A stretch of 64,000 nucleotides of DNA from Mustelus asterias (taxonomy: Eukaryota), in the NCBI RefSeq assembly GCF_964213995.1, contig NC_135801.1:115506001-115570000 (forward strand). The letters run 5' to 3'. Shown here one piece after another: positions 1,141-63,935 of the stretch. Below the pieces are notes generated by a model. That model saw only the letters and a program-made list of their open reading frames with translations. It made no database searches and was not told where the DNA came from. Each line of letters starts with the position of its first letter. The stretch's first letter is position 1. The position numbers and the translations under genes are program-made.

Positions 1141-4100
1141 TACATTTTTAAATGCAGCTGTTATGTCTAATATAGCTTCCTCCATTTGCTAAAATCAGTG
1201 TCTACTTCTGGAACATTGTGATAATACCTAATGACCGATATTGTATATTCCATTGAAATGTCAAACAGATCTGACAGCATCTGTGGAGAGAGAAACAGTT
1301 TGAGTTTCAGGCCATGGATCTTTTCCCAGAACTGACAATAGTTTGAGATATTAGAACTTTTAAGCAAGGAAAGAAAGAGTCTGAGGTATCTTTCACTATC
1401 ACCACTTTATTATTTAATTTTTCCTGCCTTGCACTCTATCACAGTCTTCCCTTTTTTTCTTACTTAACCCCCAACACTTTTCCAAGCTGCAGACTGTGCC
1501 ATGGATGTAGGGATGAACTACCGAAGAATGCAGAAAAATGGGAGAATATATGAAACATAGCACAAAATTAAATTAAACTAATGATGAACTTCAAGATTGA
1601 ATGTAATTTTGTGTGGAAAATTCACTTTCAAAATTAAAAGGAAATGTTTTGCTTTATTAATTAAACTACATAATTTGATTGAAGATTATAGCCAGCAATT
1701 TATTAATGAGATTTGCACCAAATTTGTTGACATGTCTGAACATGTATGTTAAATATGGTGAGACAGCACAGGTTACACGTGGTGAGGTAGGAGAAATTAT
1801 ACATTGACTGCTTTCTTTTCTTCTTTCTCAGTTTTGAGTTTGAATTTTCTGATGACTTGTTTTGTTCAAATTTCTCCCGATTCTGCATTTGGTGAGTCCT
1901 GGCTGAGTTACCTTGTATACAGAAGGAAAGTGGTTAGGGAGTTGTGCACATTACTCAAGGTCACCAAGCAGGTGACTGTGGGTTCAAGCACTCCACCCTC
2001 CAGGCTGAAGACTGTACCATGAATATGGGGATCGAAGAACGAAGAACTGAGCCAGGGGGAAAGCATGAAGTAGAAAAATATAATCTACACTAATTATAGA
2101 GAACAATAACCATTAACTTATGAATGTAGCTTATGTGGGCAATTCTAATTAGAGGCTAAAAAGAAACATTTCGCTTTGTTCATGGAATTAAATAATTTGA
2201 TTGAAGGTTATAATTTACAATTTAATAATGAGGCTTGCTTAACATTGCAACAAAATTGGTGCACACATTTGAACAAGTGTGTTAGTGTTAACACATGGGC
2301 CAAAGATAGGTTTTATTTGCCAAGGCAATATTGACCTTTGTCCCCAGCGAATTAGACACTTGCATATGCTTAATGTTGGACTTCACGCTCTGTCTTTATA
2401 CAAATACTGTGAGAAGTAGTTTACACACTGAGCATGTTTTCCTGAAGAAAGGGGATCCTTGGAGTTGCTTCCATAAACAAGGGTGCCACATTCAGTGGGC
2501 AACAGAAATATTTGTTCTGGAAGGGATCTTTAGGCAAATAAACTCAAGGTGATAATTTTACACATAAAACATGAACTCCAGTAGCTCAAAGTCACAGAAA
2601 CAGGAGTGGGATTTAAATAAACGTAAAAGTAGCCATGGTTTTAAAAGAAACGTTTACATTATTAGTCTCATTAATACTTTTGTTGATCTTTACCTCTTAT
2701 TTCTTTTAATTAAGGGTATCTGGCTGAATGGCAGATCATATTGTTCTGTTTTTTCTGCATTTAATCTTCCTTTACAGGAAACAGGATAACAGGAAAAGTG
2801 GATTCATTTTGGAGAGTAATAAGTTTTACTCACACTGATAATGCAGCAATGTTCACCTGCAAAGTTAATCGCTCATTTATTCACAAATATTTCATTAGAA
2901 ATATTAATTTCACTATAAAAAGAAGAGTATACACCATAATTAAATCTCTACAGAACATGGAAAATCAATTTTCAATAAACCTGACATATTTTACTCTGGG
3001 CAGTAACCCATATCTATCTGACACATATGGTTGAAAAGTCAATGTTTAGTAACCTCAGAATTTAAAAGATGAATATTATGAAATGCAAACAGGAAAATCT
3101 GACAAAGCAGCCAACAAGGTTTGTTATTGTATGACAACAATGTACTTCATTATCTACCTTCTTTCTGTCATCTGAAGGAATATTTATCATTCTCAGGAAA
3201 AGCTATGACGGTGATGAAACATTTTAATATCTAACAGCTAACAGATCTAATGATTGCAGTTACCTTTTAATAGGAAAACAGGATGGAATGCAGAATCCTT
3301 CATGGCTTTTTGAGCCCAGACTTGGCGCATGGAGGCAACACACGCCTAAAGCAAGAGGCCTGAGGATTGATAGAAATTTGTTCTTGGACTCACTTGCACT
3401 TTTTATGCAAATGCTATTGCCAGTTCACTGTGTGGGAGGTACCAGATTTATCCTGCACCTTGCCATCAGCCATACTCAGTTACATCCTGGGATGAACTTG
3501 GAGCAGTCTATGGGGGTTACAGGCATGGACAAATTCCCATTCTTGCTGGTGCCATAGGTGGTTTTAACAAAAAATATCAAAATCATGCTTCATTTGGTGC
3601 TTGTGGGAGCCACTCAAGAGTCCTGTGTGATGACATGCTCAATTTGTGAATGGGGTCCTTTACTGACATTTTTCCCTATTTGGTTGTGCGCTACTTGCTT
3701 TAGATATTTACACAGGTAGTTAGTTATAACTGGCCTCACAATTTTGACATGGGGACCCATTCTTACGTGCAAAAATCCCACTGTTAAGTGGTATGCTTTG
3801 CACTCATTTCATAGTGAAAAAAATGGGCTTAATACATACTAATGTCTAACCCTTCAATCTAATTCGTACTCCTTTGGATTGGCATTTGATTTTGGTGGTA
3901 ACATAAACTGGTCAATAATAAATATGCAGCTTATTTTGTGCAATACTCTGTCTGACATTGTTTTCTACTGCCATCACAATGATAATATAGGGGGAGTGTA
4001 AAATGGTTGGTAATTTTCTATCACCGGCTTTCTATCACTGCCTAAGAACAATTTCACTCCCTTTAACTTTAACAGACTCTTCCTCCCTTTCACCAGATGC

Positions 4101-26308: not shown

Positions 26309-26968
26309 TGGAATGTGTTGCCGGGCAAGGTGGTGGAGGCGGACACACTGGGAACGTTTAAGACTTATCTAGACAGCTATATGACCGGAGTGGGAATGGA
26401 GGGATACAAAAGAGTGGTCTAGTTTGGACCAGGGAGCGGCGCGGGCTAATTGTTCCTTGTTTCTCGTTTCAAGGCTTCATTCTATGATCATCTTGCTGGT
26501 GCCAGTACAGAGCGAGACTGCGGATAGTTGGGAACCTGTCTCGGGGGCAGGGAATTCATATGGTGTTCATGGAAGTGGAAATGACTAGGGTTGGGAAGCA
26601 TTTTCCGATCAGGGCCATTGTGATCTCCTGGACTCGTTTCGATCGCCTCAGGGGGTCGGAGAGGAATTTCCCAGATTTTTTTTTTCCCCATATTGGCCCT
26701 GGGGTTTTTCACTCTGGGTTTTCGCCTCTCCCTGGGGATCACATGGTCTGGAATAGGGGGGTGGGGGTGAGTTAATAGGTTGTAATGAACAAAGCATCGT
26801 AGCTGTGAGGGACAGCTCGGTGGATAGGATATTGGTATGTAGATAGGCTGGAAAATTGGGCGGGGATCCTGGATTCAGGATTCAATCCTGGACCGGAGAG
26901 CGGCGCGGGCTTGGAGGGCCGAAGGGCCTGTTCCTGTGCTGTATTGTTCTTTGTTCTTTTGTTCTTTT
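26309..26968 (+). mobile_element. CR1 3' end with extended 3' UTR
   Basis: End of ORF2 (WNVLPGKVVEADTLGTFKTYLDSYM), terminal gggccgaagggcctgttcctgtgctgta and (ttgttctt)n tail. Confidence 0.85.
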
Positions 26969-27487
26969 GTTTTCTTTACCTTTTCCTCATCCACTCACCC
27001 AACGTTATCCCTTTCTTTTCATTTCCAAAACCCAAGATTAGTTCGACAGTGGTGTGACGACAAGTGGACAGCAGAGATGGAGACACACAGTCATGCGATT
27101 TAGACACCAGCTCAAATACTGACACAACACAAATTTCAGAGGAGAGCATAAAGGCAGATTTGCACATGGCGAAACACTGGGTACAAGTACACTGCAGCCA
27201 GGGCAGGGATATATTTTTAAACAATTGCTTTAAAATTATGTTTGAGCAGAAACAAAGGGAAGAAAACACTTTTCAACATGGCGCAACTTTGCACGCAACT
27301 TACCCCAGAAGCATAAGTTACACCCAAAGTGGAAACTTTGTCCCAACCACACTGCAGATGACTAACCTTACATTTGCATCAAGTCTGTGGGTCTTTACCA
27401 CTCCCTTATATTTGGACAGTGGTTCAAATTCTATGGCATATTTTCCTCAGAAATTATTGCAGAACCATATTCTGATGTGGTTAAGGG
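26968..27487 (+). repeat. Left arm of a long inverted duplication (plus 26295-26310)
   Basis: Reverse complement of 28562-29080; six-frame ORFs are identical except one L/S change. Confidence 0.95.
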
Positions 27488-28561: not shown

Positions 28562-29095
28562 CCCTTAACCACATCAGAATATGGTTCTGCAATAATTTCT
28601 GAGGAAAATATGCCATAGAATTTGAACCACTGTCCAAATATGAGGGAGTGGTAAAGACCCACAGACTTGATGCAAATGTAAGGTTAGTCATCTGCAGTGT
28701 GGTTGGGACAAAGTTTCCACTTTGGGTGTAACTTATGCTTCTGGGGTAAGTTGCGTGCAAAGTTGCGCCATGTTGAAAAGTGTTTTCTTCCCTTTGTTTC
28801 TGCTCAAACATAATTTTAAAGCAATTGTTTAAAAATATATCCCTGCCCTGGCTGCAGTGTACTTGTACCCAGTGTTTCGCCATGTGCAAATCTGCCTTTA
28901 TGCTCTCCTCTGAAATTTGTGTTGTGTCAGTATTTGAGCTGGTGTCTAAATCGCATGACTGTGTGTCTCCATCTCTGCTGTCCACTTGTCGTCACACCAC
29001 TGTCGAACTAATCTTGGGTTTTGGAAATGAAAAGAAAGGGATAACGTTGGGTGAGGGGGTGAGGGAAAAGTAAGGAAAACATGCTTAAACAATTC
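28562..29095 (-). repeat. Right arm of the inverted duplication, inserted in a CR1 3' UTR
   Basis: Flanked on both sides by contiguous antisense CR1 sequence (28488-28561 and 29096 onward). Confidence 0.95.
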
Positions 29096-35982: not shown

Positions 35983-38421
35983 CTAAATCTTTGGGTTCAA
36001 GTCCTGAAAAGGGATGGATTCGTCTACCGCGTGCATCGTGGCTTTCGCAATGTCGTGTTTCAATGCCTTGAAGGCCAATTGGGCCTCTGGCGTGAGTGGA
36101 AAAGTCGTGGACTTAATAAGCGGACGGGCTTTGTCCGCGTAGTTGGGGACCCACTGCGCATAATAGGAGAAGAAGCCTAGGCATCTCCTCAGTGCTTTTG
36201 CGCTAGCGGGCAAGGGAAGTTCAGCAAGGGGGCGCATACGGTCGGGATCAGGGCCAATGACCCCGTTTTCCACCACGTATCCCAGGATGGCTAACCGGCG
36301 CTTACGGAATACACACTTCTCCCTGTTGTAGGTCAAATTCAGGCGAGATGCAGTGCGTAAAAAGTTCTGGAGATTTGTGTCATGGTCCTGCTGATCACGG
36401 CCGCAGATGGTGACATTATCCAGGTACGGGAAGGTAGCCCGCAGCCTGTTCTGGTCCACCATTCGGTCCATAGCACGCTGGAAGACCGAGACCCCATTGG
36501 TGACACCAAATGGAACCCTAAGAAACTGATACAGACGACCATCCGCCTCAAAAGCCGTGTAGTGTCGGTCCTCTGGGCGAATGGGGAGTTGGTGGTAGGC
36601 GGACTTAAGGTCTATGGTGGAGAACACCCGGTACTGCGCAATCTGATTGACCATATCAGATATGCGCGGGAGAGGATACGCATCCAGCTGCGTATATCGA
36701 TTAATGGTCTGACTGTAATCAATGACCATCCGGGGTTTGTTCCCGCTCTTGACCACCACAACCTGTGCTCTCCACGGACTAACACTGGGCTGTATGATCC
36801 CTTCTTTGAGGAGTCGCTGAACCTCAGATCTGATGAAGATCCGATCTTCAGCGCTGTAACGCCTACTTTTAGTAGCGATGGGCTTGCAGCCTGGTACCAG
36901 ATTCTTGAATAAAGAGGGTGTGGTGATCTTTAATGTAGAAAGATTGCATGCGGGGCGCTTTGGACAATTTGGAGACTGCAGCTGTTCCCCTACTGTCAGC
37001 GAAGGGAGTGGCCCACTGTACTGTAGGATCACACTCTTCATGTGGACCATAAAGTTTAGTCCGAGGAGAATTGGTGCGCAAAGATGCGGCAACACAAGGA
37101 GCCTGAATCGCTCATAAATTGTGCCTTGCACTTTCAGAGTTACCACACAACGTCCTTGAACAGGGACAGACCGAGACCTTGATGCCATAGAGATTGTCTG
37201 TTTGGCAGGTTGAATCTGGAGTCCACACCTCTTTACAGTGTCAGGGTGAATAAAGCTCTCAGTGCTCCCGCTGTCAAACAGACAATAAATTGCACGACCA
37301 TTTACCTCTATATCCATCATTGAACAGTCAAGCCTGTGGTGCTTAGCCTGGTTCAGGGTGATCGACGCCACCGTTGGTCCTTGAACGTCACTGCAGGCAG
37401 CTGAGGTCGACACTGAGGACCCCTGCTGGTCGCTCCTGGTCGTCGTTGAACAAAATGGCCGCCCCCATGAATCGCACATGGTTGAGGGCGCCAAGCGTAG
37501 CGACTCCTGGTGGTCATCCTCCTCCGACTCCGTCGACCACAATGGCGTCGTCCTGGACTCGCACGTGGACGAACCCCGTGGGTACTTCGACGTCGATGGT
37601 GACGATCCCCGTTCCGAAGGGTCACAGGCTGCACTGCCGTTCTTGGGCTTCGATTTGCACACCTTCGCATAGTGCCCCTTTTTACCGCATTGGTTACAGA
37701 CCACCGCTTTAGCAGGACACTTTTGTCGTGGATGCTTGGCTCCTCCGCAGAAGTAGCACCGCGGGCCGCATGGGGCTGCCGCCGTCGTCGGGTCTACGTA
37801 GGAGCACGCCATAACACTGCACTTCGAGCCCGTGGGTCGAGGAGGGATTTGCGACTGCTCCTGCCACGTTGTCTCCACGTGGTCCTCCGGATACAGGACC
37901 AAGCTCTTCGAAGCCGCCTCAAGCATTTCAGCCAATTCCATAGCTTGGGTCAGGTTGAGATTCCCCTTTTCTAGCAGCTTGAGACGGATGTACGAAGACC
38001 CTACCCCTGCCACAAACGCATCTCGGGCGAGGTCATACATATACTGCTCAGCCGACACAGCTTTGCAGTCGCAGCCCCTGGCAAGCTGCAAGAGCTCATT
38101 GGCGTAATCCTCCATGGTTTCGCCCGACTGCCGACGTCGTGTAGCGAGGAGGTAACGAGCGTGGATCTCGTTGGGAGGTTTCGTGTAGCGCTTTTTTAAA
38201 AGCTCGAGGGCCCTCGGGTAAGTGGTGGCCGCACGGATCGCGAGGTAGACTGTGTCGCTTACCCTCGCATGGAGGACCCGGAGTCTGTCATCATCTGTGG
38301 TGACCGCTGCGGAGGCTGCCAGGTAGTCCTCAAAACACTTCAGCCAGTGGTCGAAGGTGTTAGAGGCGCCCACCGCACGTGGATCCAGCGTCAGACGTTC
38401 TGGCTTTAAGATTTGCTCCAT
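35983..38421 (-). CDS. Fused Gag-Pro-RT polyprotein of Gypsy A, truncated at the start of RNase H
   Basis: Two zinc knuckles (CYFCGGAKHPRQKC, CNQCGKKGHYAKVC), protease LFDSGST, RT PFG and YLDN; the last residues DLNPKI come from unrelated junction DNA. Confidence 0.9.
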   Translation of the reverse strand: MEQILKPERLTLDPRAVGASNTFDHWLKCFEDYLAASAAVTTDDDRLRVLHARVSDTVYLAIRAATTYPRALELLKKRYTKPPNEIHARYLLATRRRQSGETMEDYANELLQLARGCDCKAVSAEQYMYDLARDAFVAGVGSSYIRLKLLEKGNLNLTQAMELAEMLEAASKSLVLYPEDHVETTWQEQSQIPPRPTGSKCSVMACSYVDPTTAAAPCGPRCYFCGGAKHPRQKCPAKAVVCNQCGKKGHYAKVCKSKPKNGSAACDPSERGSSPSTSKYPRGSSTCESRTTPLWSTESEEDDHQESLRLAPSTMCDSWGRPFCSTTTRSDQQGSSVSTSAACSDVQGPTVASITLNQAKHHRLDCSMMDIEVNGRAIYCLFDSGSTESFIHPDTVKRCGLQIQPAKQTISMASRSRSVPVQGRCVVTLKVQGTIYERFRLLVLPHLCAPILLGLNFMVHMKSVILQYSGPLPSLTVGEQLQSPNCPKRPACNLSTLKITTPSLFKNLVPGCKPIATKSRRYSAEDRIFIRSEVQRLLKEGIIQPSVSPWRAQVVVVKSGNKPRMVIDYSQTINRYTQLDAYPLPRISDMVNQIAQYRVFSTIDLKSAYHQLPIRPEDRHYTAFEADGRLYQFLRVPFGVTNGVSVFQRAMDRMVDQNRLRATFPYLDNVTICGRDQQDHDTNLQNFLRTASRLNLTYNREKCVFRKRRLAILGYVVENGVIGPDPDRMRPLAELPLPASAKALRRCLGFFSYYAQWVPNYADKARPLIKSTTFPLTPEAQLAFKALKHDIAKATMHAVDESIPFQDLNPKI

Positions 38422-38769
38422 ACTCTCCTTTCCGTCGAGAGCTTAGTGTTAGACAATAAAATTGATGCACGTCAATTGAACTCAAGGCACGAAGCTTCGG
38501 TAACAGAAGGCTTTTATTGTCTAACAATGGAACTAATAGAACGTAAGTACACCATCCCAGACTGACGAGGTCCCGCCCGAGCAGGGGGTCTTATACCTCT
38601 CCCAGGAGGCGGAGCCCGACTGGGATGTGCCACAACAGTAACAACCACAGGTGTATTAATCCCACCCTAGCCCAACAACAACATTAGAACAATCCCACAG
38701 TGTGAACACCCTAGCCCAACAACAACATTAGAACAACCCCACAGTGGGAACCAACGATGGTTCACCACA
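36003..38769 (-). mobile_element. Gypsy LTR retrotransposon A: 5' LTR (38463-38769) plus 3'-truncated internal region
   Basis: LTR TGTGGTGAACC...GCATCA with TATA-like TATAAGA and AATAAA; internal region is homologous to the element at 59957 onward; no 3' LTR. Confidence 0.93.
38663..38746. repeat. ~44-bp-period tandem duplication in LTR A U3
   Basis: caccctagcccaacaacaacattagaacaa(t/c)cccacagtg x2. Confidence 0.9.
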
Positions 38770-59462: not shown

Positions 59463-59956
59463 AACATATAGAAACACAGAAACTAGAAGCAGGAGTAGCC
59501 TTCGAGCCTGCTCCGCCATTCATTTTGATCATGGCTGATCATCAAATTCAATATCCTGATTCCCCCTTGCTCCCATATCCCTTGATCTCTTTAGCCCCAA
59601 GAGCTGTATCTAATTTCTTCTTGAAATCAGACAACATTTTGACCCAGCTACATTCTCTGATAGTGAATTCCACATATTCACCACCTTCTGGGTGAAGAAA
59701 ATTCTCCTCACCTCAGTCCTAAAAGGTTTACCCCTTATCCTCAAACTATGACCCCTCGTTCTGGACTCCCCCACCATTGGGAACATTCTTCCTGAATCTA
59801 CCCTGTCCTCTCTCACTCTTATAAACTCTAGTGAATATAATCCTAATCGACTTAATCTCTCCTCATATGACAGACCTGCCAACCCAGGAATCAGCCTGGT
59901 AAACCTTCGCTGTACTCCCTCTATAGCAAGGACATATCTTCCTCAGATAAGGAGAC
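59463..59956 (-). mobile_element. CR1 3' fragment (host of Gypsy B)
   Basis: GLSYEERLSRLGLYSLE...TRGHSLRIRGKPFRTEVRR; same subfamily as 42765-43282. Confidence 0.88.
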
Positions 59957-60029
59957 TGTGGTGAACCATTGTTGGTTCCCACCAGGTAGTGCTGAGCCAG
60001 GGTCTGGCCAGTACTATGAGTCTGTATAT

Positions 60030-60099
60030 ATGTTACTGTTGGGGTTAGGGTTGGGCTGTTCTACATGTTACTGTTGGGGTTAGGGTTGGGCTGTTCTAC
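60030..60099 (+). repeat. 35-bp tandem duplication in LTR B U3
   Basis: atgttactgttggggttagggttgggctgttctac x2. Confidence 0.9.
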
Positions 60100-60343
60100 C
60101 TGTAATATAGTTCTTATGGTACATCCCAGTCGGGCTCCGCCTCCTGGGAGAGGTATAAAGGTCACTGCTCTGTCTGGGACCCTTTAGTCTGGGATCGTGT
60201 ATTATATATGGTAGGTCTATTGTTGTAGTCAATAAAAGCCTTTATTTCCCCGAGTACCTCTAGCCTCGTGAGTTATGTCGCGCATCAATTTTATTGACTA
60301 CAATTGAACTCTCTTCGTTGAAAAAAAAAACGACACAGAGAAC

Positions 60344-63300
60344 ATGGAGCAAATGCTTAAACCCGAACGGCTTACGTTGGACCCATGTGCGGTGGGCGCC
60401 TCCAACACCTTCGACCACTGGTTGAAATGCTTTCAGGATTACCTCGAAGCCTCCGCAGCGGTCACCACCGACAGACTCCGGGTCCTCCACGCGAGGGTAA
60501 GCGACGCTGTATATTTAGCGATCCGTGGGGCCACCGACTACAAAGGGGCCCTCGAGCTTCTTAAGAAGCGCTACATTAAACCGCCGAACGAGATGCATGC
60601 TCGATATCTCTTAGCCACTCGACGGCGGCAGCCCGGCGAAACGACGGAACAGTACGCGTGCGAGCTCCTACAGCTAGCCAGGGGCTGTAACTGCAAAGCA
60701 GTGTCGGCAGACCAGAACATGAACGACCTCGCTCGAGATGCGTTTGTGGCGGGAATCGGCTCGTCTTACATCCGCCTTCGGCTGTTGGAGCAAGGTAATC
60801 TCGATCTCACTAAGTCCATAGAGCTAGCGGATGCGCTAGAAACGGCCTCCAAAAGTCTGGCGATGTATCCCGACGACCACGTGGAGACAGCGTGGCAGGG
60901 GCAGTCACAGACCCCACTTCATCCAGCGGGACCGAAAAACTGCGTGATTGCATTCCCACCCTCGGGCCTGGCGACGGCAGCAGCTCCAGGCGGGAGTGAA
61001 GCACCCTCGGCAGTGATGTCCCACTAAAGCGGTGTTGTGCTCCGCCTGCGCAAGAAGGGGCATTATTCGAAGGTATGCCGATCCAAACTTCCATCCAGGA
61101 ACAGCAGTGCGGCGTGTGACTCCCCGGAGCCGGTTTCCTCGTCGTCGGCATCGTTGAAGGGCTTCTTCCACGTGCGAGGCCAGGACGTCACCATTCCAGA
61201 CGACGGAGTTGCAAGAGACGCGCGACCACCAGGGGCCGCTGGTTTTGGCACCATCGCCCACGTGCGACCTATGGGGGCAGCCATTTTGGTCGGCACCGAC
61301 CGCGAATGACCAGCAGGGGTCGTCATCAACCATCTCAGCTGCCTGCAGTGGCGCTCATGAACCAACGGTGGCGTCGATCATCCTGGACCAGGTAAAGCCT
61401 CACAGACTCGACAAGTCCATGATGGACATACAGGTAAACAAACGCACGATTTATTGTCTGTTTGACAGCGGGAGCACGGAGAGCTTCATTCACCCAGACG
61501 CCGTGAAGCGGTGTGGCCTCCGGATTCAGCCTGTCAAGCAGACAATTTCGATGGCGTCAAGGTCCCGGACTGTCACTGTGCTAGGGAGTTGCGTGGTAAA
61601 TCTGACGGTGCAGGGCACGGTTTACGAGAGCTTCAAGCTCCTGGTGTTACTGCACCTTTGCACGCCAATACTCCTAGGACTAAATTTCATGGTCCACTTG
61701 AAGAGTGTAACCTTACAGTATGGTGGGCCACTCCCTCCGCTTTCAGTGGGAGACTCACAGCCTCTAAATTGCCCAACACGCTCCATCTGTAGCCTCTCGA
61801 TGCTTAAGATTACCACACCCTCTTTATTCCAGAATCTCGTGCCAGGCTGCAAGCCCATCGCGACTAAGAGCAGGCGTTACAGCGCTGAGGATCGGATCTT
61901 CATTCGATCTGAGGTTCAGCGGCTCCTCAAGGAAGGGATCATACAACCTAGCGCTAGTCCTTGGAGAGCGCAGGTCGTGGTGGTCAAGAGTGGGAACAAA
62001 CCCCGGATGGTCATAGACTATAGTCAGACCATTAATAGATACATGCAGCTGGATGTGTATCCCCTCCCGCGCATATCTGACATGGTCAACCAGATTGCGC
62101 AGTACCGGGTGTTCGCCACCATCGATCTAAAGTCTGCTTACCACCAGCTCCCCATTCGCCCAGAGGACCGACAATACACGGCTTTTGAGGCGGATGGTCG
62201 CTTGTACCATTTTCTAAGGGTTCCTTTTGGTGTCACGAATGGGGTCTCGGTCTTCCAGCGTGCTATGGACCGAATGGTGGACCATAACGGACTGCGGGCT
62301 ACCTTCCCGTACCTGGATAACGTCACCATCTGCGGCCATGACCAGCAGGACCACGATGCCAACCTTCTTAGATTCCTACGCACTGCATCTCGCCTGAATC
62401 TGACCTACAACAGGGAGAAGTGTGTATTTCGTACGCGCCGCCTAGCTATCCTCGGATACGTGGTGGAAAACGGGGTCATTGGCCCTGATCCAGACCATAT
62501 GCGTCCCCTCCTCGAACTTCCCCTGCCCACTAGCGTAAAAGCACTGAGAAGATGCTTAGGCTTCTTCTCTTACTACGCACAGTGGGTTCCCAATTACACG
62601 GACAAAGCCCGTCCGCTCATCAAGTCTCCCTCTTTTCCCCTAGCACCAGAGGCTCGGTTGGCCTTTGAAAAACTAAAAGCCGACATCGCGAAAGCCACGA
62701 TGCACGCTATCGATGAGTCCATCCCCTTCCAGGTGGAGAGCGATGCATCTGATTTCGCCCTGGCCGCCACACTTAACCAGGCGGGCAGGCCTGTCGCCTT
62801 TTTCTCTCGCACCCTCCAAGGCCCCAAAATTCGACATTCGGCGGTGGAAAAGGAGGCCCAGGCCATTGTGGAGGCAGTCCGGCATTGGCGCCATTACTTG
62901 GCGGGAAAACGGTTCACCCTGCTCACGGACCAGCAGTCCGTGGCGTTCATGTTCAATAACACGTTACGGGGCAAGATCAAGAACGATAAGATCTTGAGGT
63001 GGAGAATTGAACTCTCCACCTATAATTACGACATCATGTATCGTCCAGGGAAACTCAACGAGCCCTCGGATGCCCTGTCGCGTGGAACATGCGCTAGTAT
63101 GCAGGAGAATCGATTGCAGGCTCTCCACAATGACCTCTGCCATCCGGGGGTCACTCGGCTCTGCCACTTCATAAAAGCCCGGAGTCTACCCTACTCGGTG
63201 GAGGATGTCAGGTCCATAACCAGAAGCTGCCGGGTATGCGCAGAATGCAAACCGCACTTTTACCGACCTGACAGGGCACAACTCGTTAAGGCCACTCGTC

Positions 63301-63935
63301 CCTTCGAAAGACTGAGTGTGGATTTTAAGGGCCCCCTTCCCTCGACAGATCGGAACGTGTACTTCCTCAATGTGGTTGATGAGTACTCACGATTCCCTTT
63401 TGTCATTCCCTGTTCTGATATGACCGCTGCCACGGTTATCAAGGCATTTCATGATCTTTTCACCCTGTTCGGTTACCCCTGTTACATCCACAGCGATAGG
63501 GGCTCGTCGTTCATGAGCGATGACTTGAGGCAATACCTGCTCTCATATGGGATTGCCTCTACTAGAACCACGAGCTACAACCCAAGGGGTAACGGACAGG
63601 TCGAACGAGAGAATGCTACAGTCTGGAAGGCTGTCTTACTGGCGTTTAGGTCTAAAGGTCTTCCAGTCTCCTGTTGGCAAGAGGTACTCCCTGATGCGCT
63701 CCACTCCATACGCTCACTCCTGTGTACGGCAACCAACGCTACTCCCCATGAGAGACTGTTTTCATTCCCTCGGAAGTCTTCCTCTGGGACCTCATTACCG
63801 TCTTGGTTGACATACTCAGGACCTGTCCTCCTGCGGCGACATGTTAGGACCCGCAAGTCCGACCCTTTGATTGAACAGGTCCATCTCCTCCACGCCAACC
63901 CTCAGTATGCCTATGTGGCATACCCTGACGGGTGA
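60344..63935 (+). pseudogene. Gag-Pol of Gypsy B, disrupted by a deletion/frameshift near 61000-61200 and a probable premature stop at 63933
   Basis: Gag is homologous to element A but lacks the first knuckle. The pol ORF (61209-63935) has protease FDSGS, RT YLDN, RNase H ESDAS...EKEA...TDQ, integrase HHCC (HNDLCH...CRVC) and D,D,E. The frame continues past TGA (EDTVSIRDL), suggesting a CGA-to-TGA change. Confidence 0.88.

Follow-up and report, generated by a model that had tools for sequence, protein, structure and literature searches.

Gypsy elements of Mustelus asterias with a clade-wide pairing between the LTR and the primer position, probably used for self-priming

Introduction

The window (the whole stretch of 64,000 nucleotides that was analysed) was found to contain two Gypsy elements, element A on the minus strand and element B on the plus strand. 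No TGG was found after the LTR-terminal CA in either of them, and a single A was present between the LTR end and a stretch that pairs with the inside of the LTR. The question raised by this locus is how such elements start reverse transcription. The initial annotation had proposed tRNA-independent self-priming, occlusion of the poly(A) signal, or both. To our knowledge, self-priming has been shown only for Tf1-type elements of fission yeasts, and has been predicted for chromoviruses and for one plant copia lineage.

Structure of elements A and B

Element B was complete. The left target-site duplication of 5 bp (59952..59956, plus strand) was followed by a 5′ LTR of 331 bp with TG...CA ends (59957..60287), and the 3′ LTR, which was 97.6% identical to it, was found beyond the window (L031 4874-5204) followed by the second copy of the duplication. 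The 5′ LTR contained a GC-box-like motif of putative promoter function, common to A and B, upstream of the TATA (60132..60144), followed by a predicted TATA box (60154..60159), an initiator-like motif (60184..60189) and an LTR arm, the predicted self-primer, at 60223..60237 (13-bp core at 60225-60237, AATAAA at 60231-60236). The rest of R together with U5 (60238..60287) forms the loop between arm and primer site and would be the strong-stop template. The primer-binding position was present at 60289..60303, one base past the LTR, followed by gag-pol (60344..63935), which contained a Gag with two CCHC knuckles, protease, reverse transcriptase with YLDN, RNase H and integrase, and was interrupted by stops in this copy.

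The 5′ LTR of element A (38463..38769, minus strand) contained a predicted TATA box (38590..38595), an initiator-like motif (38560..38565, predicted start 38563) and an LTR arm, again the predicted self-primer (38512..38526, predicted +38 to +52), followed by the primer-binding position (38447..38461) and gag-pol (36003..38421). This gag-pol was a single open frame ending within the RNase H region, where the element is cut off, and no 3′ LTR was found nearby.

The hallmarks of Ty3/Gypsy elements were present, namely LTRs with TG...CA, target duplication, polypurine tract and the domain order PR-RT-RH-IN. A 5-bp target duplication was found in 40/44 copies and a purine tract ahead of the 3′ LTR in 44/44; the Gag of the A/B family contained two CCHC knuckles, and the RNase H catalytic residues aligned with those of Ty3. 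The reverse transcriptase contained YxDN instead of YxDD in A, in B (region 62310-62330) and in 94 of the 120 nearest homologues, the others having YxDD (24) or not being read (2). The LTRs of A and B were 74% identical over 253 nt and the internal parts 78% over 2.7 kb. A and B are sister subfamilies rather than distant elements.

In element B, 60289-60303 was the exact reverse complement of 60223-60237, and in element A, 38447-38461 was that of 38512-38526, as first annotated. The arms of A and B differed at 3 positions, and every change was matched on the opposite side. The longest complement to the post-LTR sequence did not exceed 9 nt in 2000 shuffles of the LTR of B. An Rfam search over the LTR-leader of B gave a sole match, a chance one outside the element. 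The 3′ LTR of B was preceded by two A nucleotides (L031 4859-4873) and the 5′ LTR followed by AT (60288-60289), a symmetric 2-nt extension that would fit one ribo-A of a primer remaining on the minus strand.

Pairing across the genome copies

The junction word was found at 3086 places in the genome against 17 for the control, and 29 of its first 30 places were element junctions, 25 of them with 15/15 pairing. A second sample was drawn without this word because it includes part of the primer site. The second sample used a TATA-to-gag pattern that touches neither arm and selects on the TATA word; it had 3585 matches in the genome and 0 in the control. Among the matches listed, 100 copies were sampled, all within the first 79 Mb of one contig. 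All of them paired in one register, 64 with 15/15, 21 with 14 and 15 with 13 matches (L210 included), although the copies are not independent and shared ancestry inflates these and all other copy counts. The pairing expected in other copies was thus present throughout the sample.

The counts per position were made over 99 copies, with L210 left out. Watson-Crick pairs were found at positions 1-13 in 96-99 copies, at position 14 in 77, at position 15 in 88 and at position 16 in 8. The edge facing U5 was sharp, with pair 1 being Watson-Crick in 99/99 copies and the next three positions toward U5 in 0, 1 and 0 of 99. At least 9 multi-copy arm variants, transversions among them, were each matched in the primer site. 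Of 79 long copies, 71 had a 3′ LTR, and in these 8 of 923 bases at positions 1-13 differed in the primer site alone, against 7.2 expected from the LTR-LTR divergence of 1.56%, so that the copies were essentially perfect at insertion. The mismatches at positions 14-15 (22/142) were inherited by whole subfamilies. The obligatory duplex is therefore 13 bp, and the 15 bp given at first for the duplex are exact in A and B but are not its required length. Both LTRs of the copies carried the same arm. Two different known arm variants were found in the LTR pair of a single copy in L255 and again in L245, which suggests gene conversion or recombination between subfamilies.

Relatives in other hosts

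The protein homologues were named from Trichinella, Trichuris, Nematostella, Xenia, Oculina, Actinostola, Elysia, Apostichopus and several sharks and rays; relatives of the clade thus occur in nematodes, cnidarians, a mollusc, an echinoderm and cartilaginous fishes. The DNA of distant relatives came from 79 metagenome loci and 2 viral loci, the latter from an IMG/VR scan and both weak and unrelated; 45 loci had a gag start and 43 had enough upstream DNA. Pairing of at least 12/13 was found in 33/43 relatives against 2/516 control places, several of the loci being re-assemblies of one element and the independent families numbering roughly 15. Among the 10/43 relatives below 12/13, four contained 10-11 matches in the same register and about six had no clear pairing. 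The reverse transcriptases of the relatives were 41-66% identical to that of B and spanned the depth of a 45-row tree, in which the only outgroups were two distant elements of the same genome. The labels for pairing and no pairing were not clustered in this tree, so the five rows without a pair resemble clade members that have decayed or been truncated. The pairing is real and clade-wide. Its retention despite changing letters, in 100/100 copies of the own genome and in 33/43 relatives, supports the proposed tRNA-independent self-priming.

The motifs were surveyed in 22 of the 33 pairing relatives, with obvious duplicates dropped. The primer site was found to contain the LTR end followed by A and TTTA (TTAA in one relative), and the arm ended with AAA followed by purine-C in 21/22. 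In relatives with a 3′ LTR (e.g. L102, L137, L156) the paired stretch lay 1 nt past the LTR end, as in the shark. AATAAA or ATTAAA was present within the arm in 9/22 relatives, and 5 of the other 13 contained one downstream, in the loop outside the duplex; hence the edge motif is conserved and the poly(A) signal is not. In the loops of L084-L161, many relatives were found to contain a small hairpin (RCC...GGY) beginning at the 3′ end of the arm, a possible landmark of the cut site.

Position of the primer in the RNA

A GC box, a TATA and an initiator-like word were common to all shark subfamilies. The distance from TATA to initiator was 31-33 nt and from initiator to arm 36-37 nt in 95/99 copies, the exceptions being two deletions and two copies without the word. 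The TATA at 60154 lies 69 nt before the arm of B, in agreement with the 65-70 nt of the initial annotation. From the usual TATA spacing of vertebrates the start is presumably at 60186, 32 nt after the TATA T, within a motif (60184..60189) that we take to match the initiator consensus; the arm would then occupy +38 to +52. The arm is thus likely to lie inside the RNA and not at its start as in Tf1, as had been suspected, a prediction based on motif spacing only. Between TATA and initiator, at about 60161-60182, a hairpin of 4-6 bp with some compensating changes was predicted; a transcript could contain it only within the copy of the 3′ LTR.

Helix at the gag start and masking of the poly(A) signal

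Folding of 10 subfamily representatives gave a pairing probability of 0.89-0.98 for the core in 10/10. A second predicted helix, the R:AUG helix, joined the 7 nt directly 5′ of the arm to the gag start (7 bp). In element B its 5′ strand (60214-60220) pairs with the region of the gag start codon (60344-60350), with one mismatch, and in element A 38533-38527 pairs with 38421-38415. This helix was 7/7 paired in 89/99 copies, against 2/1980 in the control, and two-sided changes were found in L052 and L080. It is uninformative on the transcription start, since the corresponding sequence of the 3′ LTR could also take part in such a helix. The U5:AUG duplex of HIV resembles this helix.

The predicted unpaired share of the AAUAAA hexamer was 0.00-0.03 with the leader and 0.09-0.99 in LTR-only RNA (10/10 subfamilies). 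Since the pairing partner is present only behind the 5′ LTR, masking is plausible as an added role in sharks. The occlusion of the poly(A) signal advanced in the initial annotation is therefore kept for the shark family, where masking in the 5′ LTR is likely a side benefit by these folding predictions; it is not a conserved role, because 13/22 relatives contained no AATAAA or ATTAAA in the duplex.

Recopied primer site or plain RNA stem

Copying of the primer during plus-strand synthesis rebuilds the primer site in LTR elements. A self-primer would therefore force exact complementarity between arm and site, which is the chief, though indirect, argument for priming. G-U pairs were found at 6/1287 places in the 13-base core, against 120/693 in the neighbouring R:AUG helix; among multi-copy variants the counts were 0/117 and 10/70, respectively (p=3.5e-5). 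One polymorphic pair was present genome-wide as C-G (699), U-A (77), U-G (8) and C-A (12), and wobble is not commoner than mismatch at this pair. By RNAalifold on 13 chosen copies, the changes in the primer helix were two-sided, and the R:AUG helix was predicted too, with mostly one-sided changes. The near-absence of G-U in these sequences fits a primer site that would be recopied from the primer in each cycle, and strict selection for perfect pairing could likewise deplete G-U.

Proposed mechanism and alternatives

On these sequence patterns, self-priming in one of three variants is very probable. The best single mechanism, which is modestly favoured, is that the RNA itself supplies the primer for reverse transcription, an internal piece of its 5′ copy of R. 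Transcription would start at the initiator and place the arm inside the leader; the arm would then pair, as predicted by folding and supported by covariation, with the site that lies one base past the LTR, forming a duplex that in the shark family would be extended by the 7-bp helix with the gag start codon. By analogy with Tf1, in which RNase H cleavage of such a duplex falls between bases 11 and 12 (PMC7175516), the RNase H of the element would cut at the TAAA(A)|RC edge, leaving a 3′-OH that faces U5. The strong-stop DNA would span ~50 nt (about 51) to the LTR end and would jump to the 3′ R by means of the sequence that lies between this cut and the poly(A) site. The variant pattern suggests that the plus strand then copies ~13 nt of the primer, by which the site would be rewritten to match the LTR every cycle. 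With an internal primer a single cut, at its 3′ edge, would suffice, and the sequence as far as the poly(A) site would remain available for strand transfer, but the length of primer copied would have to be limited. In Ty3 the active sites of polymerase and RNase H are about 13 bp apart (PMC5371799), equal to the length of the core, which by analogy suggests such a limit. Against an internal primer, its uncut 37-nt 5′ extension would need a stop of plus-strand copying. The two extra duplexes of Tf1 were not found either, a U5-leader duplex beating shuffles in 1/10 subfamilies (p<0.05) by a crude test.

The 3′ copy of R could instead be the primer, the arm ahead of the poly(A) tail of the same or a partner RNA pairing with the site and being cut or trimmed after AAUAAAA. 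The same arm in both LTRs, its place just upstream of the expected poly(A) site and the predicted TATA-initiator hairpin (alignment columns 26-40), which transcripts would carry only in their 3′ copy, speak for such a primer. With a start at the initiator, however, just 50 nt separate the 5′ arm from the site, with which it pairs at high predicted probability in all subfamilies folded, and a cut after the arm would probably lose the strand-transfer sequence on that molecule, so that priming from the 3′ copy appears rather unlikely. Ordinary priming of the Tf1 type, in which a main or minor transcript starts at the arm and its first 13-15 nt are the primer, would require no additional plus-strand stop and would agree with alternative starts as in Tf2 (PMC5341516). 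It would also account for the sharp end of the pairing at position 15, but the abutting R:AUG helix also explains that edge. The TATA and the initiator lie 69 and 37 nt upstream at a spacing that is fixed in all shark subfamilies, no second TATA is common to A and B, the first base of the arm is U in 98/99 copies, and a start at the arm would put AAUAAA 9 nt from the cap; a start of this kind is accordingly unlikely.

Priming by something else, with the duplex being purely an RNA structure for masking of the 5′ poly(A) signal or for control of translation or packaging, is improbable. The fall of the unpaired share of the hexamer in the presence of the leader, the confinement of the partner to the 5′ LTR and the regulation of the HIV-1 poly(A) signal by a hairpin (PMC2645353) are what such a structure would lead one to expect, but the canonical signal is absent from the duplex of most surveyed relatives, G-U pairs are lacking unlike in the neighbouring structural helix, the edge of the duplex lies at a constant distance of 1 nt from the LTR end throughout the clade, and no other primer site was found in the element. 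A tRNA serves as primer for most Gypsy elements, and tRNA halves do so for some copia elements (PMC6317226), but priming by a tRNA, a tRNA half or another small RNA of the host is highly improbable here. The site tracks the own LTR of the element in the multi-copy shark variants and in many relatives, and so cannot track a fixed host RNA; in addition to the missing TGG, the longest match to a tRNA, which the initial annotation had named as a refuting observation, was 9 nt, and 5 nt when anchored, among 30 distinct tRNA genes with 10 anticodons (a partial set).

Comparison with known systems

The self-primed chromoviruses of the Tf1/sushi group (PMC7175516, PMC4600332, bioRxiv 10.1101/2022.12.06.519325) include Tf1, Tf2, Tj1 and Tosmo/Tcry of fission yeasts, which, like A and B, contain no tRNA site and have a site that pairs with their own LTR-derived RNA. 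In both groups the primer would arise by RNase H cleavage at the edge of the duplex. The primer of Tf1 is the first 11 nt of its RNA, whereas the arm of the shark family is predicted inside the RNA, with a 13-bp core. Tf1 needs a 'pretzel' of three duplexes (bioRxiv 10.1101/2022.12.06.519325), whereas in the shark no flanking U5-leader duplex was found and the gag-AUG helix abuts the primer duplex. No Chromo or SH3_Tf2-1 match (E<=0.05) was found in 11/11 long homologues or in the C-terminal frame of B. In contrast to the Tf1/sushi chromoviruses, the shark clade thus contained no chromodomain or Tf2-type SH3 but two CCHC knuckles and mostly YxDN, and by its domains it falls outside the chromoviruses. 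Searches of the own genome for chromoviruses found none: 20 SH3_Tf2-1 loci had integrase before reverse transcriptase, were retrovirus-like or had no reverse transcriptase match, and 17/17 chromodomain loci had no adjoining integrase.

Tf1/sushi elements are reported to self-prime, and plant Tcn1 and TAR are predicted to do so (PMC6317226, PMC4600332). In plant Tcn1 (Gypsy) and in TAR/Houba/Osr-1 (copia) the prediction likewise came from LTR complementarity (PMC6317226), and its occurrence in both lineages indicates that self-priming arose more than once. Tcn1 is a plant chromovirus and TAR a plant copia element, whereas the shark clade is neither. Further cases without a tRNA site are Skipper, fungal GalEa and bivalve TRIMs (PMC5006619, PMC6934838). 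In the poly(A) hairpin of HIV-1 and the 5′ poly(A) suppression of foamy virus, AAUAAA is held in a stem as in the shark duplex (PMC2645353, PMC3694450). The hairpin of HIV is contained in the repeat and is formed at both ends, whereas in the shark the pairing partner, the primer site, occurs solely downstream of the 5′ LTR, and relatives throughout the clade do not consistently keep the hexamer.

Membership of the Mag lineage would be judged by an RT phylogeny with Mag/SURL and by a double CCHC in Gag; of these features, two CCHC knuckles were found in the shark Gag. MolGy1-16, Cigr-1, Mag and CsRN1 are non-chromovirus animal Gypsy elements, as is the shark clade, and the LTR start resembles the CsRN1 motif TGTGGYG (PMC3601003). 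The hallmark of tRNA-primed Gypsy elements (Mag, CsRN1, Gmr1), a tRNA site starting with TGG, was absent from A, B and the sampled copies. The clade is apparently unnamed. In the main text of a mollusc Gypsy survey no mention of a primer-binding site was present (PMC6238403). No description of the primer site was found in passages of PMC3601003, PMC13524379, PMC4131045, PMC2678813, PMC6238403 and PMC5341516. Within the open literature, no paper on the primer site of the clade was found, and no match for YLDN combined with retrotransposon. The equivalent Ty3 mutant, D214N, has an active polymerase of low processivity and its transposition is blocked (PMC5371799); the YxDN clade is young and abundant despite this block in Ty3.

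Implications

It is tentatively proposed, at slightly less than even odds, that a large and apparently unnamed clade of animal Gypsy elements, found from cnidarians to sharks and having YxDN and no chromodomain, may have evolved self-priming independently of Tf1/sushi. Its primer would be cut from mid-leader RNA at a conserved TAAA|RC, and RNase H spacing would limit the copied primer to ~13 nt and so rewrite the site every cycle. In sharks the same duplex would hide the 5′ poly(A) signal and extend into the helix at the gag start, coupling priming, polyadenylation and translation. If this proposal is true, the use of an internal primer by a widespread animal clade outside the chromoviruses would mean that tRNA-free priming arose repeatedly and can operate without the RNA 5′ end, and internal self-priming would be expected to escape control by tRNA fragments. 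The absence of G-U beside a G-U-rich control helix offers a genome-only test of a recopied primer site against a mere RNA stem. More than 3500 young copies in one vertebrate genome allow sharp, testable predictions of the start, the cut site and a ~51-nt strong-stop.

Other observations

A database protein, PRKR-interacting protein 1 homolog isoform X1 of Mustelus asterias (P0003), was found to include this Gag with 99% identity; the model is fused to an element copy, either by exonisation or by annotation error. The window also contained an inverted repeat at 26968-27487 and 28562-29081, with arms of 520 nt that are 99% complementary and 1074 nt apart. An open frame of 162 codons overlaps the left arm, and the repeat may represent a young DNA transposon.
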